DNA of 64,000 nt from positions 112,883 to 176,882 of the forward strand of contig JACZUI010000001.1 in the NCBI GenBank assembly GCA_022573225.1. Direction: 5' to 3'. A program made the position numbers and the translations under genes. Below the pieces are notes generated by a model. That model worked only from the letters and a program-made list of their open reading frames with translations. It had not been told where the DNA came from and searched no databases. Source of the DNA: Acidobacteriota bacterium (GTDB taxonomy: Bacteria; Actinomycetota; Acidimicrobiia; Spongiisociales; ZC4RG35). Positions 1,014-56,950 of this stretch are shown here, piece by piece. Every line of letters begins with the position of its first letter. Within the stretch, counting starts at the first letter, position 1.

Positions 1014-1095
1014 AATCGTCGTCGAGCACGATGATTTTGCTCCCCCCAAATCCTGTGCTGCACCGGCAACTCCGAGGCGCGCTAACTTTCAGCTC

Positions 1096-1968
1096 GTGGA
1101 AAGACCCGATTGGTTCAACGAGGACCTCTATCCCTTTGAAAGCCATTGGCAGGAAGTCAACGGTGCCCAGGTTCACTATCTGGATGAAGGCGAGGGCCCG
1201 ACCCTGCTGATGCTTCATGGCAATCCGACATGGTCGTTCCTCTACCGGAGGATGGTGCCGTACCTGAGCGATCGGTTCCGCTGCATCGCTCTCGACTACC
1301 CCGGGTTCGGCCTCTCGACGGCGCCGGATGGATACGGCTTCACACCGGCCGAGCATGCCTCCACCGTGAGCGGCCTCATCGACGCCTTGGGTCTTGACGA
1401 GTTCACGCCCATCATGCAGGACTGGGGAGGGCCGATCGGTCTGTCCGTTGCGCTCGACCGCCCAGATCAGATCAAGGCCATCATCCTCGGCAACACCTGG
1501 GCGTGGCCTCAGACCGACGCGTTGACCCAACGGTTCGCCTCCGCCCTCGGTGAGGGCCGCACGGGCGAGTTCCTTGTCGATCGGGCCAACGTCTTCGTCA
1601 ATGTGTTCTTGCGCAGGGCGATGAGACGCCGCAGCCCGTCCGGACGCGAGATGGACATGTGGCGCGGCCCGTTCCTCGAGCGGGATTCTCGGATTGCGGT
1701 GCGGGTCATGCCCCGTGAGCTGACAGGTTCAGCCGACTTCCTTTCCGACATCGAGGCCCGCCTTGGCGAGATCGCCGATCGGCCGTCGCTGCTCTTCTGG
1801 GCGGATCAGGATCCGACGTTTCGTGGAGCCGACAAGAGAAGGTGGGAGACGATCCTTTCCAACCGGCGCACCTACATCCTCCGTCACGCCGGCCACTTCT
1901 GGCAAGACGATGCCGGGCCCGAGGCCTCACTGATGATTCGCTATTGGTGGGACCAAACCTTTACCTGA
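1096..1968 (+). CDS. alpha/beta hydrolase, haloalkane dehalogenase-like
   Basis: Contains LMLHGNPTWSFLYR and QDWGGPIG (Asp nucleophile elbow), with a C-terminal GHFWQDD. Confidence 0.75.
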   Translation: MERPDWFNEDLYPFESHWQEVNGAQVHYLDEGEGPTLLMLHGNPTWSFLYRRMVPYLSDRFRCIALDYPGFGLSTAPDGYGFTPAEHASTVSGLIDALGLDEFTPIMQDWGGPIGLSVALDRPDQIKAIILGNTWAWPQTDALTQRFASALGEGRTGEFLVDRANVFVNVFLRRAMRRRSPSGREMDMWRGPFLERDSRIAVRVMPRELTGSADFLSDIEARLGEIADRPSLLFWADQDPTFRGADKRRWETILSNRRTYILRHAGHFWQDDAGPEASLMIRYWWDQTFT

Positions 1969-2349: not shown

Positions 2350-5300
2350 ATGAACAAGGGCCTACGGATAACCCGTCGCTTCACCAAGGCCGGAACCGAT
2401 CCCTACGACCAGATGGACTGGTCGCGCCGGGATTCCCGAATCACCAACCCAGACGGCTCAATTGTCTTTGAGATGACCGATGCCGAGATTCCGGCGAGCT
2501 GGTCGCAAATCGCTTCGGACATCATGGTGTCCAAGTACTTCCGCAAGGCGGGCGTCCCCCAATTCGATGGAGACGGAAGCCAGATTTTCGATGACGAAGG
2601 ACAACCGGTTCTCGGGACGGAGCACTCCGCCAAGCAGGTCTTCGATCGTCTCGCCAGCACCTGGCGGCACTGGGGCGAGAAAGAGAGTTACTTCGACTCA
2701 GCCGAGGATGCCGACGCCTTCGAGGACGAACTCAAATACATGCTCGCCAGCCAGGTGGCGGCGCCCAACTCACCGCAATGGTTCAACACCGGCCTCCACA
2801 ACGCATACGGGCTCACCGGCCCGGCTCAGGGATTCTGGTACGTCGACGGGGCCGACGGGCAGATGAAAGCCTCCCCCGATTCCTACAGCCGTCCCTCCCC
2901 CCACGCCTGTTTCATCCTGTCCGTGAAGGACGATCTGGTGAACCCGGGCGGAATCATGGATCTCTGGGTCAGAGAGGCTCGGATCTTCAAGTTCGGCTCC
3001 GGCGCCGGATCCAACTTCTCCTCCATCCGAGGAGAGAACGAGCGACTCTCAGGCGGAGGCAAGTCCTCCGGTGTCATGTCGTTTCTCAAGATCGGTGACC
3101 GCGCCGCCGGCGCGATCAAGTCGGGTGGCACCACTCGTCGCGCCGCCAAAATGGTGATTCTCGACGTCGACCATCCAGACATCGAGAAGTTCGTCGAGTG
3201 GAAAAAGGTCGAGGAGGACAAGGCCAAGCTGCTCATCAACCACGGTGGCTTCCCCGCTGATTTCAATGGCGAGGCTTATGCCACTGTCTCGGGGCAGAAC
3301 TCCAACAACTCGGTCCGCATCAACAACGATTTCGTGAAGGCAGTGGAGAGTGACGATGACTGGGATCTGATAAATCGGACCGACGGGTCGGTTCGCAAGA
3401 CGATCAAGGCCCGCGATCTGTGGACCACGATCGCAGAAGCCGCCTGGTCCTGTGCCGATCCTGGCCTTCAGTTCGACTCCACCATCAACGAGTGGCACAC
3501 CAGTCCGGCGGGTGGCCGAATTCGGGCGTCTAACCCATGTTCGGAATACCTTTTCTTGGACGACACGGCCTGCAATCTCGCATCGTTGAATCTGGTGAAG
3601 TTCTACGACGATCAATCCGGGGTCTTCGATATCGAGGCCTACCAGCATGCGATCCGGCTCTGGACGATCGTGCTCGAGATCTCGGTGGCCATGGCCCACT
3701 TCCCCTCCCGTGAGATTGCACAAGGCTCCTACGACTACCGGACTCTCGGGCTTGGCTACGCCAATCTCGGTTCACTGCTGATGCGTCAGGGCATCGCCTA
3801 TGACAGTGATGAGGGTCGGGCGATCGCCGGTGGGCTCACCTCGGTTCTCACCGGCTATTCGTATGCGACCTCGGCCGAGATCGCCGGCGTCACCGGGCCA
3901 TTCCCCAAGTACTCGGAGAACCGGGAATCCATGTTGAGAGTCATCCGGAACCACCGGAGGGCGGCCTACGACGACAAGGACTTTGAGGGCGTCACAACCA
4001 GAGTCATGGGCATCGACACCGACCTTTGCCCCGCCGACTTGCTCCAGGCCGCCCGCACCTCGTGGGACCTTGCGCTCGAGCGTGGCGAGGCCGACGGATA
4101 TCGCAACGCACAGGCCAGTGTTTTAGCGCCAACTGGAACAATTGGGTTGCTCATGGATTGTGACACCACCGGCGTCGAGCCTGACTTCGCCCTGGTGAAG
4201 TTCAAGAAGCTGGCCGGCGGCGGGTACTTCAAGATCGTGAACAAGTCGGTGGCGCCCGCCCTTGCCCGGCTGGGGTACCAACCTCAGGACATCAAGGATG
4301 TTGTCGAGTACATCGTGGGAACAAGCTCACTCGATGGAGCCCCGAACATCAACCGGGAGTCCCTGGTCGACAAGGGCTTCGACGACGAGGACCTGGCCAA
4401 GCTCGCGTCGGCACTTCCGTCGGTCTTCGACCTGAAGCACGCCTTCAACGTGTTCACCTTTGGTGAGGAGACGCTCCAGCGAATCGGGTTCGACGTGGGC
4501 AAGTACACCTCGTGGGACTTCAACCTTCTCAAGGCTCTCGGATTCAGCAGCCGGGAGATAGCCGAGGCCAACGACCACATCTGTGGCCGTCAGACCATCG
4601 AGGGCGCCCCGCATGTGAAGGATGAGGACCTAGAGATTTTCGACACCGCCAACAAGAACGGCAAGTACGGAACGCGATTCATCCATCACAACGGTCACAT
4701 CATGATGATGGCTGCGGCCCAGCCGTTCATCTCGGGTGCAATCTCGAAGACCATCAATATGCCTGAGGAGGTCACTCCGGAAGACATCGAGGGGGCCTAC
4801 CGACTGTCGTGGGAGCTCGGTCTCAAGGCGATGGCCATATACCGGGACGGCTCCAAGGCCGTACAGCCTCTCAACTCGGTTGCCGACGAGGGTGACGACG
4901 CCGAAGTCGAAGACGCCGCGATCACACTGGCGGTCGAGGCTGAGAAGGCGATTCACTGGGGCAGTCTGCCGGTTGGGATCTCACCGACCCAGGCATACGC
5001 CCGCGGGATGAAGCCGCCCCGGTTCCTGTTGCCTGCCCGGCGCGCCGGGTACAACCAGGAGGCCCGTGTCGGCGGTCACAAGATCTATATGCGCACCGGC
5101 GAGTACGACGACGGGACGCTTGGTGAGATCTTCATCGACCTGGCCAAGGAGGGCGCGACCCTGAAGGGGATCCTCTCCTGTTTCTCCATCGCGATCTCCA
5201 AGGGCCTCCAATACGGAGTGCCGTTGGAGGAGTTTGTCGACACCTTCACCTTCCAAACCTTCGAGCCGAGAGGCATGGTGGAGGGTCACGAGAACATCAA

Positions 5301-5759: not shown

Positions 5760-7049
5760 GTGTGTAGATCCCGGTGTCCGGCACCGGTATCTGCACACGC
5801 TCAGAAGGTTGCCAAAAACATCGATTTTGACGGAGCGTTCCCACAACTCCTGACGGTGACGGCTCTGGCAGCCGCTTTCGGGACGCTGTTGATGGCGCTC
5901 TGGGCGAAGCTGCCGTTTGCCATGGCGCCCGGGATGGGTCTAAACGCGTACTTCACCTTCACGGTCGTCCTGGGCATGGGCATCGCGTGGGAAACAGCGC
6001 TCGGCGCTGTGTTCATCTCGGGACTCCTATTCATGGTCATCGCCCTCACCGGGGCTCGGCGATGGATACTGAACGCAATACCCCTCCACCTGAAACACGC
6101 CATCACTGCAGGCATCGGGGCGTTCCTGGCGATTATCGGATTCGTGGGAGCCGGTTGGATAGGAGACAACTTTGTCACCTTCGTTCAAGTCGGCGACTTC
6201 ACCTCATGGCTTCCCTGGCTGGCGGTGGCTGGTGTCGTCGTGACAGGCGCGCTGATGGTGAACAAGGTCAAAGGAGCGATCCTGATCGGGATCCTCGCAA
6301 TAACGGCAATGGTGATCATCTTCGACGTTGACGCCTACAACTACGGTGGCGAGACTCTGGAGTCGTTTGCAGGCTTCGGTGGCTCGATCATCGGGTTCAC
6401 CGCACCCACAGACCTGATCGGTGCCATGGATCTCGGCGCGGCCTTGGGACTTGGGATAGTCAGCGTCGTGTTCACGTTCCTGTTCGTCGACTTCTTCGAC
6501 ACCGCGGGAACCCTCATCGGGTTGACCGACAAGGCCGGAATGCTCGACGAGAAGGGCCACATCCAGGCGCCTCGTGCAGCATTTGCTGCCGACGGTGCAG
6601 CCACCGCGGTGGGCGCAGCCTTGGGTACTTCGAGCACAACGACGTTCATCGAGTCCGCCGCCGGAGTCGAGGAGGGAGGAAGAACCGGGCTCACAGCCCT
6701 CACGGTCTCCGTCCTCTTCCTCGCAGCGATGTTCCTGTCGCCTCTGGCCCAGGCGATCCCGACGGTTGCCACCTCGGCCGCCCTCATCATCATCGGTGCG
6801 ATGATGATGACCGGCGCAACCAAGGTCGACTGGACCGACTATCGAAAGTCGATCCCGGCGTTCCTGGCGATCGTTGGAATGCCATTCACCTACTCGATCA
6901 CGTTCGGCATCAGCTTGGCAATAGTGACGCACACGTTCCTCTACGCAGTGAGCGGAAAGATCAAGGAGATCCACCCGATGATGTGGATCCTGACCCTGCT
7001 GATAATTGCCAACCAGACCGGCTTCATTGCCGATGTGTTCGGCGGCTAA
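5760..7049 (+). CDS. NCS2/AzgA-family purine (adenine/guanine/hypoxanthine) permease, N-terminus apparently short
   Basis: Contains APGMGLNAYFTFTVVLGMG, FVDFFDTAGTL and GTSSTTTFIESAAGV. The usual first helix (GxTTFxxMAYIxxVNP) is absent. The frame is closed by a TGA at 5754-5756. Confidence 0.8.
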   Translation: MCRSRCPAPVSAHAQKVAKNIDFDGAFPQLLTVTALAAAFGTLLMALWAKLPFAMAPGMGLNAYFTFTVVLGMGIAWETALGAVFISGLLFMVIALTGARRWILNAIPLHLKHAITAGIGAFLAIIGFVGAGWIGDNFVTFVQVGDFTSWLPWLAVAGVVVTGALMVNKVKGAILIGILAITAMVIIFDVDAYNYGGETLESFAGFGGSIIGFTAPTDLIGAMDLGAALGLGIVSVVFTFLFVDFFDTAGTLIGLTDKAGMLDEKGHIQAPRAAFAADGAATAVGAALGTSSTTTFIESAAGVEEGGRTGLTALTVSVLFLAAMFLSPLAQAIPTVATSAALIIIGAMMMTGATKVDWTDYRKSIPAFLAIVGMPFTYSITFGISLAIVTHTFLYAVSGKIKEIHPMMWILTLLIIANQTGFIADVFGG

Positions 7050-45165: not shown

Positions 45166-45687
45166 TTGACGATGGATGAATTGACCAGGGCCCTCTCGAC
45201 AGATCTCGAAGCAGCCTTCCCCGACCTCGTCACTGCCATGGGCGCAAGGTTGTTCTGGGGTCTGCGGGGCATGTGCAGAGATCATCAGGAAGCCGAAGAC
45301 CTCACCCAAGAGACCTTCATACGTGCATACAAGGCTCTCGACGGATACGACCGGGAGCGAGTGCGGGAGCTGCAACTGTCGCCGTGGATATGGACGATCG
45401 CCCTCAATCTCGGTCGCAATCACATACGGAATCGGGCACGCCGACCGAGCTTCGTTGCATTGCGGGACGAGGCGGTGGACGATCCGGAACTGCCCGACAG
45501 CGCGGCATGGGACCGAAGGTTCGCCGTCCTGAACGGCCATCAGAAGACCGCCGTGGTCCTTCGCCATGTCGTCGGGCTGGGGATCGCTGAGATCTCGCAG
45601 GCGGCCGGCCGACCCGAGGGGACCGTAAAGGCCGACATCCACCGGGGCCTGGAACGACTACGACGAACTATGGAGCAGGAGACATGA
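45166..45687 (+). CDS. ECF-type RNA polymerase sigma factor
   Basis: Region 2 is EDLTQETFIRAYKAL..WIWTIALNLGRN. Region 4 is TAVVLRHVVGLGIAEISQAAGRPEGTVKADIHRGLERLR. ATG 45172 is an alternative start. Confidence 0.85.
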   Translation: MTMDELTRALSTDLEAAFPDLVTAMGARLFWGLRGMCRDHQEAEDLTQETFIRAYKALDGYDRERVRELQLSPWIWTIALNLGRNHIRNRARRPSFVALRDEAVDDPELPDSAAWDRRFAVLNGHQKTAVVLRHVVGLGIAEISQAAGRPEGTVKADIHRGLERLRRTMEQET

Positions 45688-46442
45688 ACATAGAGACAGA
45701 GCTGGCCGATCTTGTAGGCGAGATCCCCGACGGCATGAGCGAAGGGGTTGCTCTCGGCACCGGGATCGCCGACGGCTACGACCTGTACGACTCCCCGGTG
45801 GGCGAGGTGGTGATCATCTTCAACCCGGAAGGAGTCTCCTCGGTGGACCTGGCCGATGGAGGATTCAAAGCAAGGTTCGCCCAACGATTCGGCAGGCAAC
45901 TGCTGAGAGCCGAGGCGCCGTCAGCTTGGCGAAAGCACATCGAGCCGGCCATCGACGCCGGGACCCCCGGTCGGCTGCCGGTCGACTTGAGGGCTGTCAC
46001 CGAGTTTCAGGCCGGGATTCTCAAGGTCGCTGCATCAATTCCCAAAGGCCAGGTCCGCTCGTACTCGTGGCTGGCCCATCAGGCCAATCGACCCAAGGCG
46101 GTCCGGGCCGTTGGGTCGACAATGGCGGCCAACCCGGTGCCGCTGATCATCCCGTGTCATCGTGTCGTCCGCTCCGATGGCCACATCGGTGCCTACTCGC
46201 TCGGAGGCGCCCAGAACAAGTGGGACCTGCTCGAGCATGAGGGAGCCGACCCACATCGTCTCGAGGATCTCGCCGGGAATCGCATCCGGGTGCAAGGGAA
46301 CAGCAGCAGCGGGATCTTCTGCTACCCGACCTGCCGGGCCATCCGACGCTCCAAGCCGACAAATGTCGTCAGCTTCCGATCGGTCGAGACCGCCGAGCAG
46401 GAGGGCTACCGAGCCTGCGAGCTCTGCCTCCCCTGCTGCTGA
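45684..46442 (+). CDS. O6-alkylguanine-DNA alkyltransferase (Ogt/MGMT) fused to a C-terminal Ada-type zinc domain
   Basis: Active site VPLIIPCHRVV. The C-terminus GIFCYPTCRAIRRSKPTNVVSFRSVETAEQEGYRACELCLP resembles the N-Ada Cys4 Zn module. ATGA overlap with the sigma gene. Confidence 0.8.
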   Translation: MNIETELADLVGEIPDGMSEGVALGTGIADGYDLYDSPVGEVVIIFNPEGVSSVDLADGGFKARFAQRFGRQLLRAEAPSAWRKHIEPAIDAGTPGRLPVDLRAVTEFQAGILKVAASIPKGQVRSYSWLAHQANRPKAVRAVGSTMAANPVPLIIPCHRVVRSDGHIGAYSLGGAQNKWDLLEHEGADPHRLEDLAGNRIRVQGNSSSGIFCYPTCRAIRRSKPTNVVSFRSVETAEQEGYRACELCLPCC

Positions 46443-46532
46443 GCCGAAGGAGACAGTCGTAACCGGCTTGAGAGGCCGGGTCAGCTGCAACAGAGCCCGA
46501 TGCCGATTAACGCTGACTGCCATTAATCAGCT

Positions 46533-47508
46533 CTGACCTGGGACTTCGCGCAATCGACGTTTCGCGACGTGTCGCGTCAGTTCTTAGACGTTCTCGTACT
46601 CGCGGCGTTGCGGTCAGATCGTCTGGCGCTGGTCCGGCCAGATGACCATGCCAGGGGGTTGCGTCTGTTGGTGAAACGGCATCGAGATATGGCGAGGCTG
46701 CGTGCCAAACATTGCTCACGTCTCCATGCGTTGCTCCTCGAACTCCAACCGGGCGGTATCAGCTCAAAGATCGGTGTTGCCAGCACAAACCGGCTCCTCG
46801 AAGACCTCACCATCGACGACGAAGCAGGCCGGTATCGGGTCCTTATCCCCTGTGAACTCGTCGATGACGTCGCCGGCCTCGACATCACGTTGAAGGCATC
46901 CAAGAAACGGATCGCAGCAGCATTCGCAGCGTCAGGGACATCGCTGACCGATATTGTTGGGGTCGGGCCTGTCTGTGCCGCGACCATCATTGGATACACA
47001 GGCGATGTGACCCGGTTCCCGACCAAGGGCCACTACGCGACGTACAACGCCACCGCCCCGATCGAAGCGTCATCCGGCAGTCATATGAGACACCGGTTGA
47101 ACCCGAGAGGGAACCGGGTGCTCAACCACGCCATCCACATCGCTGCGGTCACCCAGCTGCGCCACGCCACCCAAGGTCGGGTCTACTACGACCGCAAGAT
47201 CACCGAAGGCAAAACACCCAAAGAAGCAATCCGAGCGTTGAAACGACGCATCTCAGATGTCGTCTACCGCCACCTCATCACCGACAGCCGACAACACCGT
47301 ATCGGCTGAAAAAGGAGGGTCCGGGAGGACACCCAGGAACGTCTTCTAGTCCAGCGTGGCCGGCTCACATCCTGATACGCCGGCTCTTTGGACAAGTCCT
47401 TCCCGGACCCCGACATCAACGCTACGACCAATCGCGGCCCACCGCCAGCGGTCCGCTTCAACGCGCCCAGCCTCGTTCAAAAACATCCGCTTGACACAAA
47501 GAGGCTTC
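46533..47508 (+). mobile_element. IS110-family insertion sequence remnant (5' part missing)
   Basis: Encloses the truncated transposase and about 200 bp of 3' non-coding sequence. It ends directly at a GTTATGTGC core site. Confidence 0.55.
46569..47309 (+). pseudogene. IS110/IS116/IS902-family transposase, C-terminal two thirds only
   Basis: GVGPVCAATIIGYTGDVTRFPTKGHYATYNATAPIEASSG...NPRGNRVLNHAIH...YYDRKITEGKTPKEAIRALKRR. The N-terminal DEDD catalytic domain is absent. Confidence 0.75.
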
Positions 47509-47517
47509 GTTATGTGC
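47509..47517 (+). repeat. isolated R'-type core GTTATGTGC at the IS junction
   Basis: Identical to the R' box of copies A, B and E, but no L' box precedes it. Confidence 0.4.
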
Positions 47518-47566
47518 TGCCTCCTTATGTCGAATGGTGGATCGTGACGGACATGGATCGACGGGT

Positions 47567-47644
47567 CCGTAACGACGGTCGGCTACCGGGGAGCTGGCTG
47601 GCGTATGCTCGGCTCAGTCGGCGGAGGCGTCGAATGGGTTATGC
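47567..47644 (+). repeat. weak attC-like site (CCGTAAC ... GTTATGC)
   Basis: CCGTAACGACGG pairs with GCGTCG..GTTATGC across a bulge. No ORF lies between it and the 47509 core. Confidence 0.3.
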
Positions 47645-47667
47645 CTTGATGGGCGAAAGGAGATGAC

Positions 47668-48315
47668 ATGGACTTCAGTACCAAGGATACGGCGGTTGTG
47701 ATAACTGATCCGCAGAACGATTTTTTGAGTCCTGATGGAGTTACTTGGGCATTGGTGGGTGAGAGTGTCACGGAGAATCGGACGGTGGAGCACCTGGAGC
47801 AACTGATTCGGGCTGCGAAGGATTCCGGCTATCAGGTTTTTGTGTCACCGCACTATTACTTCCCGACGGATTACGGCTGGCAGTTCGGTGGGACCCTTGA
47901 GAATCTGATGCATGAGATCAAAATGTTTGACCGCTCTGGTGCACTCTCGCTAGAGGAATTCGAGGGCTCTGGAGCGGATTGGGTTGACCCGCTAGGCAAG
48001 TACATCGGTGATGGCGAGACGATTGTGACGAGTCCCCACAAGGTGTTCGGGCCGGAGACGAACGATCTTGCGCTGCAGCTTCGGAAGCGGGGCATCAACA
48101 AGGTGATCCTCGCTGGCATGTCGGCAAATTTGTGCGTCGAAGCCCACATGCGCCAGCTGACAGAAGACGGCTTCGAAGTTGTCGTAGTCAAGGACGCAAC
48201 CGCGGGTGCTCGTCATCCTGAGCTTGGCGACGGCTACGAGGCCGCGCTGGTGAACTTCGCCTATATCGCTAGTGGTGTGATAACAACCGATGAAGCGACC
48301 GCTGCTCTGATCTGA
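47668..48315 (+). CDS. isochorismatase-family cysteine hydrolase
   Basis: AVVITDPQNDF, ILAGMSANLCVE. RBS AAAGGAG. GC is visibly lower than the flanks, about 50 percent in a 120-nt hand count. Confidence 0.8.
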   Translation: MDFSTKDTAVVITDPQNDFLSPDGVTWALVGESVTENRTVEHLEQLIRAAKDSGYQVFVSPHYYFPTDYGWQFGGTLENLMHEIKMFDRSGALSLEEFEGSGADWVDPLGKYIGDGETIVTSPHKVFGPETNDLALQLRKRGINKVILAGMSANLCVEAHMRQLTEDGFEVVVVKDATAGARHPELGDGYEAALVNFAYIASGVITTDEATAALI

Positions 48316-48372
48316 GCGTCTACAACTCGGGTGAGATATCGACCGCAGGTTTTGCGGTCTGTGTAGTTAGGA
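48316..48372 (+). repeat. divergent attC-like site after the isochorismatase gene
   Basis: TCTACAAC ... ACCGCA-GGTTT-TGCGGT ... GTTAGGA. The inner part resembles the 3' half of copy C (CCGC..TTTGCGGTC). Confidence 0.35.
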
Positions 48373-48382
48373 TTGCTCGCCA

Positions 48383-49447
48383 ATGAGGAGCAGATTGACC
48401 AGCCTTCTCGACGACCCCGGCGAAGTTGCTCAGCTGTTGCTGAATTCGACTGGGGAGGGCATCTACGGGGTCGATCTCGACGGTAACTGCACCTTTGCCA
48501 ACCCCTCCTCTCTGCGCATTCTCGGGTTCGACAGCGACACAGAATTCCTCGGACGGAACATGCACGAACTTGTCCATCACACCCTCCCCAACGGTGACCC
48601 GTACCCGATGACCGAATGCCAGATCTATCGGGCTTTCCGAGAAGGAAGAGGCGTCCACGTAGACAACGAGGTCATGTGGAGAGCCGACGGGTCCAGTTTC
48701 CAAGCCGAGTACTGGTCCTATCCGATGGAACAAGATGGACAGCTAATCGGCTCCGTCCTCACTTTCGTCGACATCACCAAACGCCGCCGATTGGAAACGG
48801 AGCTTCGAAACGAAAATGCACGAGCGGAGCGGCTTCTTCTCAACGTGCTACCGGCTGAGATCGCCAGACAGCTGAAGGCCAAACCAGGCAAGACGATCGC
48901 CCAACACTTCGAGCAGATCACCGCACTCTTCGCCGATCTTGTTGGTTTCACTCCGCTGTCAGCACGTCTCGATCCCGCCGAAGCGGTAGCCATCCTCAAC
49001 GAGATCTTCACGGCATTCGATCGTATTGCCGCCAATCACGGAGTCGAAAAGATCAAGACCATGGGCGACGGATACATGGTCGTCGCCGGCGCTCCCATTC
49101 CTCGTGACGACCACTGCGATGCGATTGCCCTGACAGCACTCGAGATGCGAGAGTGGATGAATGACCGAGTCGCCGACGACGGCATAAAGCTGCGCGTCAG
49201 GATCGGTATCAACTCGGGGAGTGCTATCGGTGCAGTTATTGGCACAACCAAGTTCGCCTACGACCTTTGGGGCGACACCATCAATGTGGCATCGAGAATG
49301 GAGTCCTCGGGAGAGCCAGGGCGCATTCAGGTGGCCCAAGGCGCCTTCTCCAGACTACGCGACAAGTATGTGTTCGAACCTCGGGGCATGATCGAAATCA
49401 AGGGAAAAGGCGAAATGGAAACCTGGTTCCTCGAGGCGCCGATCTGA
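48383..49447 (+). CDS. PAS sensor domain - class III adenylate/guanylate cyclase
   Basis: The PAS part has GIYGVDLDGNCTFANPS. The cyclase part has ALFADLVGFT, KTMGDGYMVVAG and DLWGDTINVASRMES. Confidence 0.85.
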   Translation: MRSRLTSLLDDPGEVAQLLLNSTGEGIYGVDLDGNCTFANPSSLRILGFDSDTEFLGRNMHELVHHTLPNGDPYPMTECQIYRAFREGRGVHVDNEVMWRADGSSFQAEYWSYPMEQDGQLIGSVLTFVDITKRRRLETELRNENARAERLLLNVLPAEIARQLKAKPGKTIAQHFEQITALFADLVGFTPLSARLDPAEAVAILNEIFTAFDRIAANHGVEKIKTMGDGYMVVAGAPIPRDDHCDAIALTALEMREWMNDRVADDGIKLRVRIGINSGSAIGAVIGTTKFAYDLWGDTINVASRMESSGEPGRIQVAQGAFSRLRDKYVFEPRGMIEIKGKGEMETWFLEAPI

Positions 49448-49508
49448 GAGGACGGTTGAACGGACAGGCCACCCTTGCTCACCGCGACCGCTGCTCTGCC
49501 CGCTGGTC

Positions 49509-49541
49509 GCGTAACCACACTTCATCTGAGGTGTTGGTTCC
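49509..49541 (+). repeat. short attC-like hairpin (GCGTAACCACAC ... GTGTTGGTT)
   Basis: 8-bp stem with one extrahelical base. AAC and GTT triplets are at the ends. Confidence 0.25.
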
Positions 49542-49581
49542 ATTAGGGTTCCGACGCGATCCTCGACGAGGGAGGAGTGCC

Positions 49582-50358
49582 ATGGCAGATGTGATCCCGG
49601 TTGATGAAGATCAACTCCGTTTGGAAATCCAAAAGCACTACGCCGAGGTAGCGGATAGCCCTGACCATGAGTTCCACTTCCACACTGGTCGGGACGCCGC
49701 CCGACGGGTCGGTTACGACGAAGCCGTCATCAAGGACATACCTGATGACGTGATCGCTTCCTTTGCTGGGGTGGCCCACCCGTTCCATTTCGGTTTGCCA
49801 AAGCCAGGGGAGACGGTTCTCGATGTCGGCTCTGGAGCAGGTGTCGACGTCATCATCGCCGCCAAAGCAGTCGGCCCCGAAGGCCGGGTTATCGGTGTCG
49901 ACATGACACCCGAAATGCTCGACGCCGCTCGCCGTAACACCGAACGGATGGGGTTGGACAACGTCGAGTTCAGAAAAGGCCTAGTTGAACGTCTCCCCGT
50001 GGACGCCGAGTCGATCGACCTTGTCATCTCGAACGGTGTACTCAATCTCATGGTCGACAAGCACGGTGCCTACAGGCAGATCGCCCGTGCTCTCAAACCG
50101 GGTGGCCGTCTCCAGATCGCTGATATCTGCGTAGACAGGCCAGTTTCCGATAGTGCGAAACGGAACATCGATCTCTGGACTGGCTGAATTGCCGGTGCCC
50201 TGCCGTGTGCAGGGTGGGAAACGGTCATCACAGCCGTCGGATTCATCGATCTGGAATTCGGGCCGAGCGTCGACACCTACGGTGGAGCCTTAGGTGAGAA
50301 GAACGCCAGACTGTTCGGGACCTGGGGCTACCCGTTCCGAGCCCACAAACCTCTCTAA
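49582..50358 (+). CDS. SAM-dependent methyltransferase (ArsM/UbiE-like), candidate selenoprotein with in-frame TGA at 50185-50187
   Basis: SAM motif VLDVGSGAGVDV. The text reads ...RNIDLWTG-TGA-IAGALPCAGWETVITAVGFIDLEF...FGTWGYPFRAHKPL*. The TGA aligns with the Cys of the family motif LWxGC(I/V)xGA. A further 56 sense codons of family-like sequence follow before the TAA at 50356. Confidence 0.6.
50198..50214 (+). promoter_or_regulatory. candidate bacterial SECIS hairpin
   Basis: UGA AUUGCCGGUG CCCUGC-CGUGU-GCAGGG. A 6-bp stem with a GU-containing loop starts 10 nt after the UGA. Confidence 0.4.
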
Positions 50359-50434
50359 CAGCCGCCCACAATCGGCATTATCTTTGCGTTCGCTTGGCGC
50401 TGACAGCCGCCCATAAGTGCCGTTATGTGCGGCC
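50359..50434 (+). repeat. attC-like repeat A
   Basis: CCACAAT-CGGC-ATTATCT ... CCATAAG-TGCC-GTTATGTGCGGCC. The methyltransferase TAA lies in a TCTAAC box just upstream. Confidence 0.55.
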
Positions 50435-50459
50435 CTAGAATTCGACTCTTGGAGATAAT

Positions 50460-50744
50460 GTGGGAATCCTGATAGTCGTACTGGTGGTGGCGGGCCTTGC
50501 CCTGGGTTGGTGGGTGATGAGCGGCTCTTCGTCTGGAAGGCACCTGACCGATGAGCAGAGGCGGTGGGCAGCCCCAGAGCCCGAGCAGAACAAGAGCCGG
50601 GCAAAGCGTCCTATTCCGGCCTGGGCACTGGGTCTAATCATCGCCGCCGTGCTGTTCGGTATCGGGATCATCATTCTCCAGGCTCTCGGATTTGGTGACA
50701 ACCCGGTCCTCGGTGACGCGGTTTCCACCCTTCGCCCTCTGTGA
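50460..50744 (+). CDS. small two-helix membrane protein (cassette ORF)
   Basis: GTG preceded by GGAG. 94 aa with hydrophobic N- and C-terminal segments. Confidence 0.45.
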   Translation: MGILIVVLVVAGLALGWWVMSGSSSGRHLTDEQRRWAAPEPEQNKSRAKRPIPAWALGLIIAAVLFGIGIIILQALGFGDNPVLGDAVSTLRPL

Positions 50745-50860
50745 CCGGCAATCGGTCCATCGGGCGCGGGATTTCGTGTCTGGCTGGAGCCAGCGTGCTT
50801 CGCCTTTCATGGCGCAGCGAACCCGAACAGACACAAAAGCGTGTTTCGTTCATCTGAGCT

Positions 50861-50931
50861 GCGCATAACCGACATTATGTCCGGATCGTGGCGGTCGTCG
50901 CAGCCGCCCATAAGTGCCGTTATGTGCGGCC
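50861..50931 (+). repeat. attC-like repeat B (best copy)
   Basis: GCGCATAAC-CGAC-ATTATGT-...-GGCGG..CCGCC-CATAAG-TGCC-GTTATGTGC. The outer boxes pair 8/9. The 31-nt 3' core is identical to copy A. Confidence 0.6.
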
Positions 50932-50989
50932 TAGATTGTGACAAGGGGCAACGGATGGGAGGGTTTGAAGCGGAAGGTTGGAGCGCCGA

Positions 50990-51466
50990 ATGTCAGACGA
51001 ACGGAAAGAACGAGCGCGGATTCCTCCGAGGTGGTTCGTTCGCCTCTTCTGGTCTACGCACCGCGGCTTGTACCGCCTTACGGGTGGCCGATTCGGATTG
51101 AGGCGGGCGAAGCCCAACCGCTGGGGAATGATGCATCTCACGACCACCGGGCGTCGCACCGGCCAGGAGCGGAGTGTGATCCTCGGGTACATCGAGGATG
51201 GTCCGAACCTGGTCACCATGGCGATGAACGGCTGGGCCGATAGCGAGCCTGCGTGGTGGCTCAATCTGCAAGCGCAGCCCGAAGCCAGCGTCGATCTCGC
51301 CGACGGCCGACGCACGGTCAGAGGGCGGGCTGCAGAGGGAGAGGAACGCTCGCGACTGTGGGCCGGGTGGCGCGAAGTGAATACGGACCTGGATGGCTAC
51401 GCGGCGCTTCGGTCGGCTGAGACCGCCGTTGTGATCCTGGAGCCATCGACCGGCCCCGACCGATGA
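50990..51466 (+). CDS. DUF385 / deazaflavin (F420)-dependent nitroreductase-family protein (cassette ORF)
   Basis: LTTTGRRTGQERSVILGY...MNGWADSEPAWWLNLQAQP. Confidence 0.75.
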   Translation: MSDERKERARIPPRWFVRLFWSTHRGLYRLTGGRFGLRRAKPNRWGMMHLTTTGRRTGQERSVILGYIEDGPNLVTMAMNGWADSEPAWWLNLQAQPEASVDLADGRRTVRGRAAEGEERSRLWAGWREVNTDLDGYAALRSAETAVVILEPSTGPDR

Positions 51467-51480
51467 TGCATTTGCATCCA

Positions 51481-51575
51481 GCGCATATCGCACGCCCGGG
51501 GATTCTCGATTGAACGACGACCCCCACCCACAACCGGCAATATGCAGCCACGCATAAGTGCCGCTATTTGCGGTC
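51481..51575 (+). repeat. attC-like repeat C
   Basis: GCGCATATC ... CAGCCACGCATAAGTGCCGCTATTTGCGGTC. Confidence 0.5.
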
Positions 51576-51706
51576 GCTGAGAGCGGCTCAGGTCTGCACC
51601 GAATGACTGGCGTGGTGTAGATTCGGACTTAGGCCGACCGAACAGAGTCCACAGCGGCAAGCAGCGGACTCACGTATGTCGGTTCGCCATCGAAGAGGAG
51701 TGCAGC

Positions 51707-52162
51707 ATGGCGGCAATCGTCCACAGCGTTGAGATCGACAGAGGGCCTGCCGAAGTTTTCGCCTACGTTACCGATCCGTCCAAATTCACCGAGTGGCAGG
51801 CCGCTGTTGTAAGCGCACGTGCCGAAGGCGACGGGCCGTTGCAGCAAGGTTCCAGACTCGTCATGACACGCCGGATGGGGAAACGAGAGCAAACGATGAC
51901 GGCCGAGTTCACGGAATATGACTCCCCGCGAAGCTACGCGTTCCGGGTGCTCGACGGCCCGGTTCGGGCGTTGGGGAAGGGAAGCTTCGAGCCGCTCGGC
52001 GGCGGCGACCGCACACGCTTCACCTTCGAACTCGACTTCGAGGGCCACGGAATCGGCAAGCTGCTAGTGCCGTTGGTCGTACGAAGGCAGGCGGAGAAGG
52101 AGCTGGCTCAGAGCCACGAAGATCTGAAGATAAAGCTCGAGCAAAACCCTCAAGCGGATTAA
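51707..52162 (+). CDS. SRPBCC (polyketide cyclase/dehydrase-like) family protein (cassette ORF)
   Basis: MAAIVHSVEIDRGPAEVFAYVTDPSKFTEWQ. RBS GAGGAG. Confidence 0.75.
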   Translation: MAAIVHSVEIDRGPAEVFAYVTDPSKFTEWQAAVVSARAEGDGPLQQGSRLVMTRRMGKREQTMTAEFTEYDSPRSYAFRVLDGPVRALGKGSFEPLGGGDRTRFTFELDFEGHGIGKLLVPLVVRRQAEKELAQSHEDLKIKLEQNPQAD

Positions 52163-52236
52163 CGCACACTTGGAGAACAGCGCACGACTGAAGCCACTGC
52201 CCAGAGACCGCCTTTAAGTGCCGTTTTGTGCGGGCC
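52157..52236 (+). repeat. attC-like repeat D
   Basis: GATTAAC (contains the SRPBCC stop TAA)-GCAC-ACTTGG ... CCTTTAAG-TGCC-GTTTTGTGCGGGCC. Confidence 0.5.
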
Positions 52237-52289
52237 GGAAACCGGTGTTGGTGCCTTGGGGCACGGGTCGGTTTGGGTTGCTCTGACCG

Positions 52290-52823
52290 CTAGGAGACGG
52301 CGATAGGCCCTTCGACATGGGTGACTGCCCATACATCATCGACCACAACGAGTCGGTAGGTCAACCAGGTACCGCAGACACCTCCGCACCACATCGAAAC
52401 GGGAACAAGCCCGGTGTCAGCTCCGATGACGGGTTCACCGACACCGAGTATCGCAGCTCCCTCGATGGTGGGAGCCAAGTCAGGGGTTACCCAGTCCGAC
52501 GGGTCGTCGATCCAACGCACCACTCCGTATTCCGCGACGGCTTGTTCGATAGCCTCTCGCTCTGCGTCGGTCAGCTGTCGAGCAGATTCGCTGGCTGATG
52601 CAGTGGCGTTGCCGGCCGATGTGTCAATCCGGTTCTGGATCAGATACTCGGTGAACGGGGGCGGCCCTTCGGCAAAGCCGTGATCCTCGGTGATGAGTTT
52701 CACTAGGGCCGCAGCCATCATCTCAGGGGTCTGGTTCGCGCCGAAGTCGCCGCCAGTGCTCTCTTCGGTACCGCACGCAGCGACCAACACCGAAAACGCC
52801 AGGAATACAACTCCTATCCTCAT
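52290..52823 (-). CDS. hypothetical lipoprotein (cassette ORF, inverted orientation)
   Basis: MRIGVVFLAFSVLVAACGTE lipobox. No family recognised. Confidence 0.55.
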   Translation of the reverse strand: MRIGVVFLAFSVLVAACGTEESTGGDFGANQTPEMMAAALVKLITEDHGFAEGPPPFTEYLIQNRIDTSAGNATASASESARQLTDAEREAIEQAVAEYGVVRWIDDPSDWVTPDLAPTIEGAAILGVGEPVIGADTGLVPVSMWCGGVCGTWLTYRLVVVDDVWAVTHVEGPIAVS

Positions 52824-52860
52824 GCCCTTCAGACGATCAGTGTTCCCAACCGGTTCCCAC

Positions 52861-52943
52861 ACCTAATCGTGGCCGGGGCCAGACCAACGGCCTCGGCGTC
52901 AGCAGTCTCAAAACAGACCGCCATAGGTGCCGTTATGTGCGCC
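52861..52943 (+). repeat. attC-like repeat E
   Basis: ACCTAATC ... CAGACCGCCATAGG-TGCC-GTTATGTGCGCC. Confidence 0.5.
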
Positions 52944-52955
52944 TAATCCTCATCG

Positions 52956-53318
52956 TTAGACGTCCCCGTCCTTGAGACTCCGCAGGTAGTCGTATGAGAA
53001 GATCCCTGTTCGGTGTCCGTCGGGCCGGAACGTCAAGTTGATCCCATAACCGACCAACTCTGCGTCGCCAATTTCCACTTCGATCGGTCCCCTGAGAAGG
53101 ACTGCAAGGCGCCGCGCACCGTCCGGTTCACCACACGCTGCGCAGGGGCACGCTGCTCGCAGTTCTCGGGCGCTGAATCGTTGCTCAGTGCCGTTGTGCC
53201 ACACAAGAAGCATCTGAGTCCCGCCCTCTATCTCGATGCGCGTCGGCGGGTCCACGGTGCCGGAGGGTAACCGCTCGGCGAGAACGGAAACCAGAGGGAC
53301 AGGTCCAACAACCCGCAT
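52956..53318 (-). CDS. DUF971 family protein (cassette ORF, inverted orientation)
   Basis: LLVWHNGTEQRFSARELRAACPCAAC...GYGINLTFRPDGHRTGIFSYDYLRSL. Confidence 0.7.
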   Translation of the reverse strand: MRVVGPVPLVSVLAERLPSGTVDPPTRIEIEGGTQMLLVWHNGTEQRFSARELRAACPCAACGEPDGARRLAVLLRGPIEVEIGDAELVGYGINLTFRPDGHRTGIFSYDYLRSLKDGDV

Positions 53319-53367
53319 TATGTACGGTCAGATCAGCCGCCCATAAGTATCTGCGGATGGCGTTGCT
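53305..53367 (+). repeat. attC-like repeat F (degenerate, terminal)
   Basis: CAACAAC-CCGC-ATTATGT ... CAGCCGCCCATAAGTATCTGCGG. The GCCGTTATG segment of the core is missing. The next GTT is at 53361. Confidence 0.4.
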
Positions 53368-53628: not shown

Positions 53629-55575
53629 ATGCGGGATCTCAATCAAGAACAGCTAGCAGTCAACACGATCAAGGCGTTGGCAATGGACGCCGTTCAGAAG
53701 GCCAACAGTGGACACGCGGGCATGCCGATGGGAATGGCCGACATTGCGGTCACGCTGTGGTCGAAGCACCTCAACGTCGACCCCGACGCGCCGGAATGGC
53801 CCGATCGTGACCGGTTCGTCCTCTCCAACGGCCACGGGTCGATGCTCCTCTATTCGATGCTCCACCTCTCGGGGTTCCCACTGACGCTCGAAGACCTCCG
53901 CGACTTCAGACAGTGGGGGAGCCACACGGCCGGTCATCCCGAGCGTGACAACAGCCTTGGAATCGAGATGACCACCGGCCCGCTCGGCCAGGGTTTCGCA
54001 GCGGGAGTGGGCATGGCCATCGCCGAGACCCACCTTCGGGCCCGTCTCGGAGACGACCTGGTGAGCCATCGCACTTTTGGGTTCGTATCCGATGGCGATC
54101 TGATGGAGGGCATCAGCTCCGAAGCTGCCTCGCTGGCCGGCCATTTCGGCTTGGGCCGGCTCACCTACTTCTACGACGACAACCAGATCTCCATCGACGG
54201 GTCGACGGACATCACCTTTACCGAGAACGTTGCCGACAGATTCGCCGCATACCAATGGCATACCGTGACGATCGACGGTCATGACCGCAGAGCCATCAAC
54301 GAGGCGATCAGCGAGTGTCTTGCCGAACCAGACCGTCCGTCACTGGTCATATGCAAGACGCACATCGCTGATGGGGCGCCGAACCTCCACGACACCTCGG
54401 CCGCACACGGTCAACCCCTGGGCCATGACGAGATCAAACTGACCAAGGAAGCGATGGACTACCCCATCGACCCGGACTTCTTCGTCGACGACTCGGTCTA
54501 CGAGTTCTTCGGAACGGCAATGAACCGGGGTCGAGAAGCGCACGCCGCTTGGAGGACAAGGTTCGAATCCGCCGGAGGGACGCAGAGGGAGCTCTGGACC
54601 GCCCTGTACGGAGAGAGCCGGGTTTCTCTCGATGGCCCCGGGTTCGAAGTCGGGGACAAGGCCGCCACTCGAGACTCGGGAGGCCAGCTATTCGCTGAGA
54701 TCGCTTTGAAGGTGCCCGGATTCATCGGAGGCTCGGCCGACCTGGCGGGCTCGACCAAGACCGTGATCGAAAAGGGGCGTCTTTTCTCAAAGAGTGACCC
54801 CTCGGCACGCGACATCCCATTCGGAGTGCGAGAGCACTCGATGGGCGCCCTCGTCAACGGAATGTCCCTCCACGGCGGACTCCGCCCATATGGGGCGACC
54901 TTCTTCGTGTTCAGCGACTACATGCGGCCCGCTGTCCGGCTTTCCGCTCTCATGGAGACACCATCTATCTGGGTGTGGACCCACGAGTCGATTTTCCTCG
55001 GGGAGGATGGCCCCACCCACCAGCCGATCGAGCACCTCGCGTCGCTGCGGGCGATGCCCAACCTGTGGGTGATTCGGCCGGCCGACGCCAACGAGACCCT
55101 GGAGGCGTGGGAGTTGGCCCTCAATCGTCACGACGGGCCTGTGGCCCTCCTTTTCACCCGGCAGGGATTGCCGAACCTGGAGAGAGTGCCCGGGGCCGTA
55201 GCTCGGGGCGGATACATCAGACGCGACGGCAAGGACGTAACCCTGATCGCCACCGGGTCAGAGGTGAGTGCGGCCTTGGCCGCGGCCGATCTGCTCGACG
55301 CCGATGGGATCGGGGCCCAAGTGGTCAGCCTTCCATGCTGGGAGCTGTTCTTCGCCCAGGATGAGGAGTATCAGCAGAAGGTCCTCGGGACCGCACCGCG
55401 GGTGAGCGTTGAGGCCGGTTCCACGTTCGGGTGGGAGCGGATCATCGGGGATGACGGACTCGCCATCGGGCTCGACCGCTTCGGCGCCTCAGCCCCCGAC
55501 ACGGTGCTCGCCGAGCAGTTCGGTTTCACCCCCGAGTCGATCGCCACCCAAACCCAGCAGCATCTGAACCGCTGA
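53629..55575 (+). CDS. tkt: transketolase
   Basis: [34 protein letters not shown] and [19 protein letters not shown]. Confidence 0.95.
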
Positions 55576-55576
55576 T

Positions 55577-56950
55577 ATGACCGCATCGGCGGACGTTGTC
55601 ATCGTCGGGGCAGGGATCGCCGGAGTCTCCGCAGCGCACGAGCTTGCCGTCCGTCGAGGCTTCGAAAAGGTGGTCATCGTCGATCCGCGTCCGCCGCTCA
55701 GCCTCACCTCGGATAAATCAACTGAGTGTTACCGCAACTACTGGCCAAACCTCCCGATGGTCGCTCTGATGAACCGGTCGATCGACCTCCTCGACGAGAT
55801 GTCCTTAGCCTCAGGAAACGCATTTGGCCTGAATCGAAGGGGCTATCTCTTCGTGACCGCCAAGCAAGAACGACTCATGGAGCTCGTCGAGAGCTCCCAC
55901 GTCAGTTCGAGCTTTGGATCGGGCCCGGTGCGGATTCACCACGACCCGGACTCCTATCGCGCCGCCGACGACGGCTTCGACGTCCTGGCCAACAGTGAGA
56001 CTCTTCGTCAACACTTTCCGTATCTCACCGGTGAAGCCGTCGGAGCGCTTCACGTTCGCCGGGCGGGCTGGTTCAGCGCCCAGCAGCTCGGGTCATGGAT
56101 GTTGGAGCAGGCGAAAGATCGAGATGCAGAGGTCGTCGTTGATGAGGTGATCGACATTGACATCGCCGGTGGCCAAGTACGGTCGGTGAAGCTGGCGTCG
56201 GGAAGGGTCATCACAACCTCCGTCGTGATCGACGCTGCGGGACCACTCTCCCCGAACGTGGCCCGGTTGGCGGAAGTGGACCTGCCAGTTTTCTCGGAGC
56301 TTCACCTCAAGGTGGCGTTCCGCGACCATCTCGAAGTAGTCCCGCGGAACGCTCCGATGATCATCTGGAGTGACCCTCAGACCATCGCTTGGAGCGACGA
56401 AGAGAAGACGGAGCTTCTCAATCAGGATCGACACCAGTTGGTCGCGGAAATGCCCATCTTCTGCCACGGGCGACCCGAGGGCGGGGCCGAGTCTCCTTAC
56501 CTCCTGGCGTTATGGGAGTACCACAAGGCTGTCACCGAACCGCTGTGGCCCTTGCCGACCGACCCCCTCTACCCGGAGGTGGTGATGCGTGGCATGGCCA
56601 CGATGGTCCCCGAACTCGGGCAGTATCTCGACCGCCTCCCCCACTCGGTCGTGGACGGTGGCTACTACTCCAAGACCCGCGAGAACCGGCCGCTGATAGG
56701 GCCGGCCGGGCCAAAAGGGTTCCACCTCATGTCAGCCATGTCGGGGTTCGGGGTCATGGTCGCCGCCGGGGCGGCCGACTTGGTGGCGAGCCACATCACC
56801 GGCGGGCCGGTGGCGGAATACGCAAAGTCGTTCCTGTTGAGCAGATACGACGATCCAGACTATGTGGCCCAAATCGCTGCTCTCGAAGACGCTGCTCTCG
56901 AAGACGCCGGTCTCGAAGACGCCGGTCTCGAAGACGCCGGCCAGCTCTAG
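55577..56950 (+). CDS. FAD-dependent oxidoreductase (DAO family)
   Basis: [18 protein letters not shown] dinucleotide fold. Starts 1 nt after the tkt stop. Confidence 0.8.
56876..56950 (+). repeat. 15-bp in-frame tandem repeat (4 full copies plus a partial one) at the 3' end of the oxidoreductase gene
   Basis: GCTGCTCTCGAAGAC x2, then GCCGGTCTCGAAGAC x2, then GCCGGCCAGCTCTAG. This encodes [24 protein letters not shown]. Confidence 0.9.

Follow-up and report, generated by a model that had tools for sequence, protein, structure and literature searches.

A probable chromosomal array of small gene modules bounded by dif-like cores in Acidimicrobiia, and an Xer-like recombinase gene beside such cores in related loci

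Integrons are the standard example of a system that captures single genes and shuffles them, and their attC sites are the insertion targets of a specialised group of insertion sequences (IS), the IS1111-attC group. Genome surveys have found no complete integron in Actinobacteria (PMC4889954, PMC9024848). In Acinetobacter, Xer-type sites of 28 bp delimit accessory gene modules, known as pdif or dif modules (PMC6449649, PMC7399989, PMC13141974), and the IS1202 family targets these pdif sites (PMC10132070). The published dif/Xer layout consists of two 11-bp half-sites around a 6-bp centre (PMC5357621), and Escherichia coli dif reads GGTGCGCATAATGTATATTATGTTAAAT (PMC2731167). Here we analyse a 64,000-nucleotide stretch of contig JACZUI010000001.1 (the window), in which the interval 47.5–53.4 kb is probably an array of small accessory gene modules in the chromosome of a member of the Acidimicrobiia, inserted between its Ada/Ogt-like methyltransferase gene (ogt) and its transketolase gene (tkt). 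The array, which has no recombinase gene and is partly decayed, would belong to a cassette platform in which a dedicated Xer-family recombinase works on dif-like cores, and we hold this account, taken as a whole, to be reasonably probable. No published description of these arrays was found; our coverage of the literature was incomplete and a prior description is possible.

The array is marked by one repeat family. The 31-mer CAGCCGCCCATAAGTGCCGTTATGTGCGGCC is found without any difference at 50404 and 50901 and recurs as diverged copies at 51545, 52205 and 52914, with start-to-start spacings of 497, 644, 660 and 709 bp between the five copies. A 21-mer taken from it has five matches at three or fewer mismatches, against 0.00 expected from 100 shuffles. 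Profile hidden Markov models (HMMs) were made from 273 sites of the main core, here called RH, and 107 of a second core, LH, all collected outside the window, and were then run on the window. They returned the matches listed in Table 1 and nothing further anywhere in the 64 kb, giving an inventory, all within 47.5–53.4 kb, of five strong copies, one degenerate copy and one half-site at 47508. Each core-bounded interval holds one open reading frame (ORF), and the Pfam families are unrelated between intervals. A sequence-only reading of the window had described such a family, confined to the array, with two copies alike at 31 of 31 positions, with one ORF of unrelated function per interval (a membrane protein, DUF385, SRPBCC, lipoprotein-like and DUF971), and with the last two ORFs inverted beside a degenerate last site; all of this was borne out. 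Rfam, at gathering thresholds and at E <= 10, held nothing relevant to the sites, and a terminator scan found no T-run terminator-like sites at the cores.

The RH core is 28–30 bp long and reads GCCGC(C/A)CATAA-GTGCCG-TTATGTGCGG, its inner positions being at least 90% conserved. Two near-symmetric inverted arms of about 11 nt (GCCGCC-CATAA and TTATG-TGCGGC) surround an asymmetric 6-nt centre, GTGCCG. Judged by its sequence, this is the architecture of a dif/Xer site, and RH can be classed as a dif/Xer-type core; the inner CATAA-N6-TTATGT is common to RH and E. coli dif. The LH core, CATAA-CCGGCA-TTATG, has the same arms as RH, and its centre approximates the RH centre in reverse complement, with an offset of one base. 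It lies within 75 nt of RH at 94 of the 259 family RH cores and is missing at the other 165. In the window it accompanies four of the six full sites (A, B, C and F), hence the four-box layout proposed in the sequence-only reading stood at these four and failed at D and E, which are single cores, and the extents of 80–95 bp given there for C, D and E were over-stretched. Across the family loci the LH-to-RH distance is quantised near 24, 34 and 45 bp, the classes lying roughly a helical turn apart, and this phasing suggests that LH is an accessory binding site on duplex DNA. Site C is a derivative, by deletion of about 10 nt, of the 34-bp spacing type found in L121. The left arm of Site D is decayed, L249 retaining CCATAAG where the window reads CTTTAAG, and the central region of Site F is shortened and dead (CATAAGT/ATCTGCGG). 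The stop codons in TCTAAC and GATTAAC, which had been read as embedded in the sites, are present outside the conserved cores and are no feature of the family. Weaker sites suggested at 47567, 48316 and 49509 gave no family match with the HMMs: the true element in that region is the half-core at 47508–47521, and 47567 falls within the 5' part of a cassette, in sequence that L200 and L216 conserve.

The family is abundant, and its cores form arrays in contigs of Acidimicrobiia metagenome-assembled genomes (MAGs) and in at least 120 metagenome stretches, the latter listed by an exact 21-mer scan. The pattern used on genome contigs was loose, and its 120 matches were mostly due to chance, with about eight true loci, all in Acidimicrobiia or co-sampled bins. 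In total, 336 cores in 134 loci were compared, with a median same-strand spacing of 747 bp (interquartile range 534–1220); one locus, L102, has seven sites in 7 kb. No RH core was found in viral contigs. Three modules of the window occur again in other loci with different neighbours (Table 1). Homology blocks were collected from an all-against-all comparison of loci (at least 250 bp, below 99% identity), and 86 of the 254 block ends internal to both loci fell within 40 nt of a core in both, typically 12–13 nt from the core centre. Random placement would give 1.2 (maximum 4 in 200 trials), an excess of about 70-fold. Of the 16 blocks that had a core at either end in each of the two loci, 13 kept the module in the same orientation relative to its flanking cores. 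Modules have evidently been exchanged between these loci with breakpoints at the cores, in agreement with the earlier proposal of exchangeable single-gene units bounded by recombination-type repeats. Gene orientation relative to the site is weakly co-oriented across the family (71 same and 56 opposite, by a crude caller based on G+C at third codon positions, GC3); this caller replaced a longest-ORF test, which had given 78 against 78 and is unreliable at 60% G+C.

A tyrosine recombinase was not found in the window (tblastn of the whole window, best E = 0.73), as the sequence-only reading had noted, and tblastn detected tyrosine recombinases in a few family loci. In L223 a 302-aa Xer-like tyrosine recombinase gene lies 56 nt from an RH-like core and is divergent from it. 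Its product has a Phage_integrase domain and a SAM-like N domain (Pfam), scores below every NCBIfam cutoff, among them those for XerD (153 bits, cutoff 330), XerC (144, cutoff 335) and XerS (63, cutoff 267), and reaches only 80 bits, in two stretches, with the integron integrase model TIGR02249 (cutoff 265) and 46.5 bits with PRK15417 (cutoff 435). Its best PDB match is XerD (1a0p). An alignment with IntI1 and XerD, which serves as a lead only, showed the catalytic R, K, HxxR, H and Y and no IntI-type insertion.

Nine distinct loci with this gene were compared (L223, L160, L241, L242/L243, L244, L245, L246, L254/L255 and L257), and the linkage statistics rest on them. A core in minus orientation lies 50–62 nt upstream of the recombinase ATG in all nine, and a core in plus orientation lies 2–10 nt past the stop codon in six of the eight loci that extend beyond it. 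Further cores on both sides point away from the recombinase gene, with at least nine cassettes on one side in L246. At the upstream core the arm facing the recombinase is poorly conserved, as in attI, and a conserved leader with a hairpin comes next. The diverged recombinases of L246 (72% identical) and L257 are accompanied by the variant cores CATAGGTGCCGATATG and CATATGTGCCGATATG, therefore site and enzyme co-vary. Units of recombinase and array lie in unrelated chromosomal contexts, for example beside secE-nusG-rplKAJL in L245. Homologues of the recombinase number in the thousands, mostly on contigs of 1–5 kb, and those at 68–99% identity are numerous.

A plasmid link was considered and rejected: among plasmids, the nearest homologue of the recombinase, at 47% identity, is on Pseudonocardia autotrophica pPA12743CP, and no dif-like cores or arrays surround it. 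Two further loci contain recombinase fragments. L095 has a truncated tyrosine-recombinase N-terminal (SAM-like) fragment (1402–1878, minus strand) flanked by a CobW-family cassette, which has an LH+RH site, and by an apparent tRNA gene, judged from the translation, and this fragment may be the decayed head of another array. At the array end in L198 a second, phage-type integrase fragment (639–1175, minus strand) begins exactly at an RH core, as if the array, or a recombination event at the core, had cut an integrase gene.

The flanks of the array are chromosomal, and related genomes show the position without it. In L252 and L253, whose tkt is 76–78% identical to that of the window, the order is sigma70, Ada/Ogt, a gap of 93 nt without cores, and tkt. 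As ogt and tkt are adjacent there, the 7 kb between them in the window is an insertion; this comparison upstream of tkt, which had been proposed earlier, supports its reading as accessory DNA. The array has 57–59% G+C and its flanks 60–64%. The same-species contigs L247–L250 keep DUF385, SRPBCC, lipoprotein, DUF971 and tkt, and the contigs end inside the array. Cassette turnover, also proposed as a check, is not visible at the strain level near tkt, where the order in these four contigs is identical; across loci, modules occur with other neighbours.

The head of the array in the window is occupied by a truncated IS, as had been suspected. It belongs to the IS110 family, and its right end (...CTTGACACAAAGAGGCTT) passes directly into the half-core CGTTATGTGCTGCC. 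Homology of the window to L200 and L216 starts at 47508, inside the intact RH cores of these loci. L151 shows this IS right end and junction as well, and L242 has an LH core interrupted by a related IS at the corresponding point, with CATAACCGGC on one side and ATCATG on the other (4693–4708; also about 6080–6100). Insertion of IS110-family elements occurs at one fixed position in the RH or LH centre and in one orientation, with ...GAG(G/A)(C/T)TTC followed by (G/A)T(T/C)ATG. IS110-family genes are found in L242, L246, L255, L257, L129 and L184, and in at least seven arrays overall. These elements are an IS group that targets the cores, much as other groups target attC, for example IS1111-attC, or pdif. 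The sequence between ogt and the IS may have been lost together with the 5' half of the IS, possibly including a recombinase gene. The 3' non-coding end of the IS110-family remnant also contains a sub-threshold Rfam match to the Mycobacterium small RNA ncrMT1302 (47308–47402, minus strand, 40.8 bits against a gathering threshold of 45, E = 3e-5).

These arrays resemble integrons in several ways. A tyrosine recombinase gene heads an array whose cassettes mostly hold one gene and are each closed by a recombination site, all sites have one orientation, cassettes are common to different arrays with breakpoints at the sites, the site adjacent to the recombinase has only one well-conserved arm, as attI does, and the arrays fragment assemblies. 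They differ in that the recombinase is Xer-like without the IntI insertion, one dif-like core of 28–30 bp makes up the essential site rather than a folded attC of 57–141 bp, a second core may be lacking and shows no covariation with the first, arrays extend to either side of the recombinase gene, genes appear to have almost no bias in orientation, and the host phylum is Actinomycetota. Acinetobacter pdif modules share with them the discrete modules, the Xer-type sites, the varied contexts, either gene orientation and a dedicated IS group. There, however, the sites alternate (C/D, D/C), are plasmid-borne and are presumed to be acted on by the host XerC/XerD, whereas here the sites are direct repeats in chromosomal arrays and a dedicated recombinase gene is bracketed by two cores, which sets these arrays apart from dif modules of the Acinetobacter type. 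Dif-like sites also flank the DNA integrated by integrative mobile elements exploiting Xer recombination (IMEX; CTX-phi, VGJ-phi, TLC-phi and the gonococcal genetic island, GGI) and in the xerS-difSL system, where the recombinase gene adjoins its site (PMC5357621), and paired inverted dif-like sequences could fold, as in CTX-phi attP. In contrast to IMEX, the units here are single genes of 0.4–1.5 kb, not phages or islands, with many per array; in contrast to both, the arrays are not tied to one chromosomal position and the recombinase is no XerC, XerD or XerS equivalog.

Covariation was scored on 30 distinct composite sites of 73 nt in an ungapped alignment, against 500 shuffles. With LH paired to RH, as in attC, 85.2% of cells were paired, equal to the shuffled mean of 85.2% (260 of 500 shuffles at least as high), the LH:RH covariation score was 0.056 against a shuffled mean of 0.049 (55 of 500 as high), and a hand tabulation of LH and RH arms showed no association. 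When the two arms of each core were paired with one another, 83.7% of cells were paired against a shuffled mean of 81.8% (0 of 500 at least as high), the score was 0.093 against 0.058 (0 of 500 as high), and 14 double changes were seen where 6.4 were expected. Symmetric change of the arms should be expected of a site co-evolving with copies of a single recombinase bound to it. Whichever the cause, the R''/R' and L''/L' logic of attC receives no support from covariation.

This result bears on two explanations that assign the sites a folded form. The sequence-only reading took the repeats for attC sites of an integron or of a cluster of attC sites lacking an integron integrase (CALIN), active as single-strand folds and left behind by a lost IntI. 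Sites A and B do have a two-core layout that can fold into an extended, imperfect hairpin in which a single base bulges out on either side, R' (GTTATGT) fits GTTRRRY at six of seven positions, the cassettes are single ORFs with all sites in one orientation, and relatives have a half-conserved, attI-like core beside a divergently transcribed recombinase. Neither an IntI nor a bipartite attC was found, however: the array-linked recombinase has the low integron-model scores, the XerD match and the missing insertion described above, 165 of 259 cores have no LH, the LH-to-RH spacing is quantised rather than free, LH and RH do not covary, and gene orientation seems nearly unbiased. Nor were the predicted single-strand folds of the six sites, on both strands, unusually stable (z-scores −2.35 to +0.79), a test that is weakly informative as each core is itself a palindrome. 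The surveys that record no complete integron in Actinobacteria, as the earlier reading had stated, point the same way, and we think an integron remnant or CALIN very improbable. Another alternative keeps the recombinase and cassettes and supposes attC-like chemistry, the LH-spacer-RH unit forming a single-strand hairpin that mimics a duplex core, as in CTX-phi attP(+). LH is nearly the reverse complement of RH with its centre shifted by one base, so the fold would give a core-like duplex with two bulges, two mismatches and 85% of cells paired, and LH goes with the upstream gene, as attC does (window compared with L118 and L121). Against it, the two thirds of cores that have no LH still bound common modules, LH:RH covariation is absent, and the one-turn spacing steps suggest proteins on one face of duplex DNA. 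We regard this alternative as unlikely and do not favour a folded-hairpin role for LH.

Two other explanations dispense with either the dedicated recombinase or with gene movement. In an IMEX-like pile-up, the recombinase would be the cell's own single dimer-resolution Xer beside its dif, namely RH, and the modules would have hijacked dif; the dif architecture, a gene adjoining its core as in xerS-difSL, best family matches to XerD and XerC, and the direct arrays of dif-like sites that integration at dif yields would all fit. Yet the recombinase stays far below the XerC, XerD and XerS equivalog cutoffs, the cores are multi-copy, recombinase-plus-array units occur in unrelated contexts such as the ribosomal-protein locus of L245, relatives have no core between ogt and tkt, the position of the window array, and many near-consensus direct-repeat cores would be unstable if each were a functional dif. 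A pile-up of this kind, with the recombinase serving in chromosome dimer resolution, seems improbable. Alternatively, the cores could be palindromes of the repetitive extragenic palindrome (REP) or bacterial interspersed mosaic element (BIME) kind, or terminators or operators, accumulating in intergenic DNA without gene movement. Each core is palindromic and can form a 10-bp hairpin, cores are intergenic and follow genes, and the bottom strand of Site B prefers local hairpins. This is highly unlikely given that every copy in the 64 kb lies in one cluster within 6 kb, arrays elsewhere surround a recombinase gene with fixed geometry in nine loci, core orientation is uniform whatever the gene direction, homology blocks end at cores far above chance, and neither T-run terminators, in the scan, nor a RAYT-type gene was seen.

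Several observations weigh against a dedicated Xer-family platform and temper our preference for it. The action of the recombinase on the cores and the circular intermediates rest on sequence comparison, the window itself has no recombinase, most family loci are short metagenome contigs, and the linkage statistics are limited to nine recombinase loci. The proposed mechanism does not account for LH, and within-core covariation could also be explained by hairpin selection or by relatedness of the sequences. No core was detectable at the junction upstream of the window methyltransferase module (about 49500), and L118, L198 and L200 have module junctions with LH only, without a recognisable RH core. 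Near tkt, the identical cassette order in four same-species contigs shows no strain-level turnover, and L251 has four other genes and no core between ogt and tkt, hence this spot may be variable for reasons besides the cores.

In the mechanism we propose, the cores would be substrates of the dedicated Xer-family tyrosine recombinase of about 302 aa, whose gene in relatives stands at the head of arrays, bracketed by two inverted cores with arrays running outward on both sides. Each module ends in one RH core. The recombinase would bind both arms of a core; near-symmetric arms and the absence of a second recombinase gene nearby suggest a single recombinase protein. Strand exchange would take place across the GTGCCG centre between duplex RH cores, two direct cores would release a module as a circle carrying one core, and the circle could enter any other core, in an orientation fixed by the asymmetric centre. 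We infer core cutting, a double-stranded substrate and circular intermediates from the sequence patterns above. In the window, an IS110-family element of the kind that targets the core centre struck the head, and the IS was later truncated. With no recombinase, decayed sites at D and F and no detectable core at the junction before the methyltransferase module, the array is likely to be frozen for the most part.

It is an even question whether Acidimicrobiia possess a second gene-capture platform, assembled independently and analogous to the integron in function, in which two inverted dif-like cores bracket the gene of a dedicated Xer-family recombinase, two arrays of exchangeable single-gene modules grow in opposite directions, and recombination takes place on simple duplex cores instead of folded attC sites. 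If so, it could represent either the Xer-based type of precursor from which IntI/attC evolved or a convergent solution, bearing on the origin of IntI/attC from Xer-like ancestors, and it would explain shuffling of small accessory genes in a phylum without integrons. In marine or sediment Acidimicrobiia, the job of an integron appears to be done by an Xer-like enzyme and short dif-like sites. As the arrays break assemblies, their gene content is systematically under-sampled in MAGs. A simple 30-bp duplex site and a single recombinase would be easy to test, and could serve as a tool for high-G+C hosts.

Table 1. Array sites, genes, flanks and recurring modules in the window. Positions count from the first nucleotide of the window; L numbers are the loci compared with it.
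Feature	Position	Strand	Details
Ada/Ogt-like methyltransferase gene, left chromosomal flank	45684..46442	+	L251–L253 order sigma70, Ada/Ogt (PF01035, PF02805), tkt
5'-truncated IS110-family element	46527..47507	+	C-terminal Transposase_20 part only, ORF 46569–47309, PF02371 E = 2e-17
Right half of RH core (CGTTATGTGCTGCC), split by IS, opens first module	47508..47521	+	L200/L216 homology begins here; RH remnant (nhmmer), right half 47508–47517
Isochorismatase module, shared	47508..48350		L200 85–932, 87% identity
Isochorismatase module, shared	47508..47807		L216 1020–1322, 83% identity; L216 contig ends there
Isochorismatase-family hydrolase gene	47668..48315	+	PF00857; same module behind RH core in L200 (87%) and L216
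PAS + adenylate/guanylate cyclase gene	48383..49447	+	PF00211 + PAS; not core-bounded
Methyltransferase module + Site A, shared	49571..50432		L118 272–1136, 79% identity
ArsM-like S-adenosylmethionine (SAM) methyltransferase gene, in-frame TGA at 50185	49582..50358	+	Methyltransf_31; common with L118 272–1136, 79%, TGA included
Site A	50360..50434	+	LH core 50360–50387, RH core 50405–50434; LH-to-RH 45 bp; profile matches LH 50360–81, RH 50405–50434
94-aa membrane protein gene	50460..50744	+	No Pfam family above threshold
Site B	50861..50932	+	LH core 50861–50889, RH core 50901–50932; LH-to-RH 45 bp; profile matches LH 50861–89, RH 50901–50932
F420H2-dependent quinone reductase family (F420H2_quin_red/DUF385) gene	50978..51466	+	PF04075; module + site common with L121 638–1269, 75%, neighbours differ
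DUF385 module + Site C, shared	50990..51572		L121 638–1269, 75% identity
Site C	51524..51576	+	LH core 51524–51544 abuts RH core 51545–51576; LH-to-RH 24 bp; profile matches LH 51524–44, RH 51545–51576
SRPBCC (Polyketide_cyc2) gene	51707..52162	+	PF10604; same position in same-species contigs L247–L250
Site D	52205..52236	+	RH core only; left arm decayed (CTTTAAG); RH profile match 52215–52236
Lipoprotein-like gene, inverted	52290..52862	-	No Pfam family
Site E	52914..52944	+	RH core only; RH profile match 52921–52944
GBBH-like_N (DUF971) gene, inverted	52956..53318	-	PF06155
Site F, array end	53305..53367	+	LH core 53305–53330, RH left arm 53335–53348; LH profile match 53310–30; RH remnant (nhmmer), left arm only 53335–53348
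Transketolase gene (tkt), right chromosomal flank	53629..55575	+	Best-named homologues Acidimicrobiia

Six of the array genes in the window are forward and two are inverted. The PAS-cyclase gene, which the sequence-only reading had treated as a separate unit bounded by sites, proved to be part of an insertion (48351–49454) into the 3' region of the isochorismatase module, L200 933–965 resuming as window 49455–49500. Cyclase genes (PF00211) are also present in or beside arrays L102, L242, L245, L251 and L254.

The ArsM-like methyltransferase reads NIDLWTG*IAGALPC at its in-frame TGA (50185–50230 region), and the homologous cassette of L118 stops at the same codon. About 40 nt 3' of this TGA are almost identical between the window and L118, though the genes are only 79% identical, and a hairpin (GCCCUGC-CGUGU-GCAGGGU) begins 11 nt after the UGA. 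From its sequence, this arrangement looks like a selenocysteine codon with a bacterial selenocysteine insertion sequence (SECIS) element.

Over the window as a whole, cumulative GC skew has its minimum near 47–49 kb and is about zero in the right flank, a signal judged too weak for placing an origin or terminus. Further downstream, a 15-nt tandem repeat of about five copies (56860–56934) at the 3' end of a FAD-dependent oxidoreductase gene encodes 24 residues.

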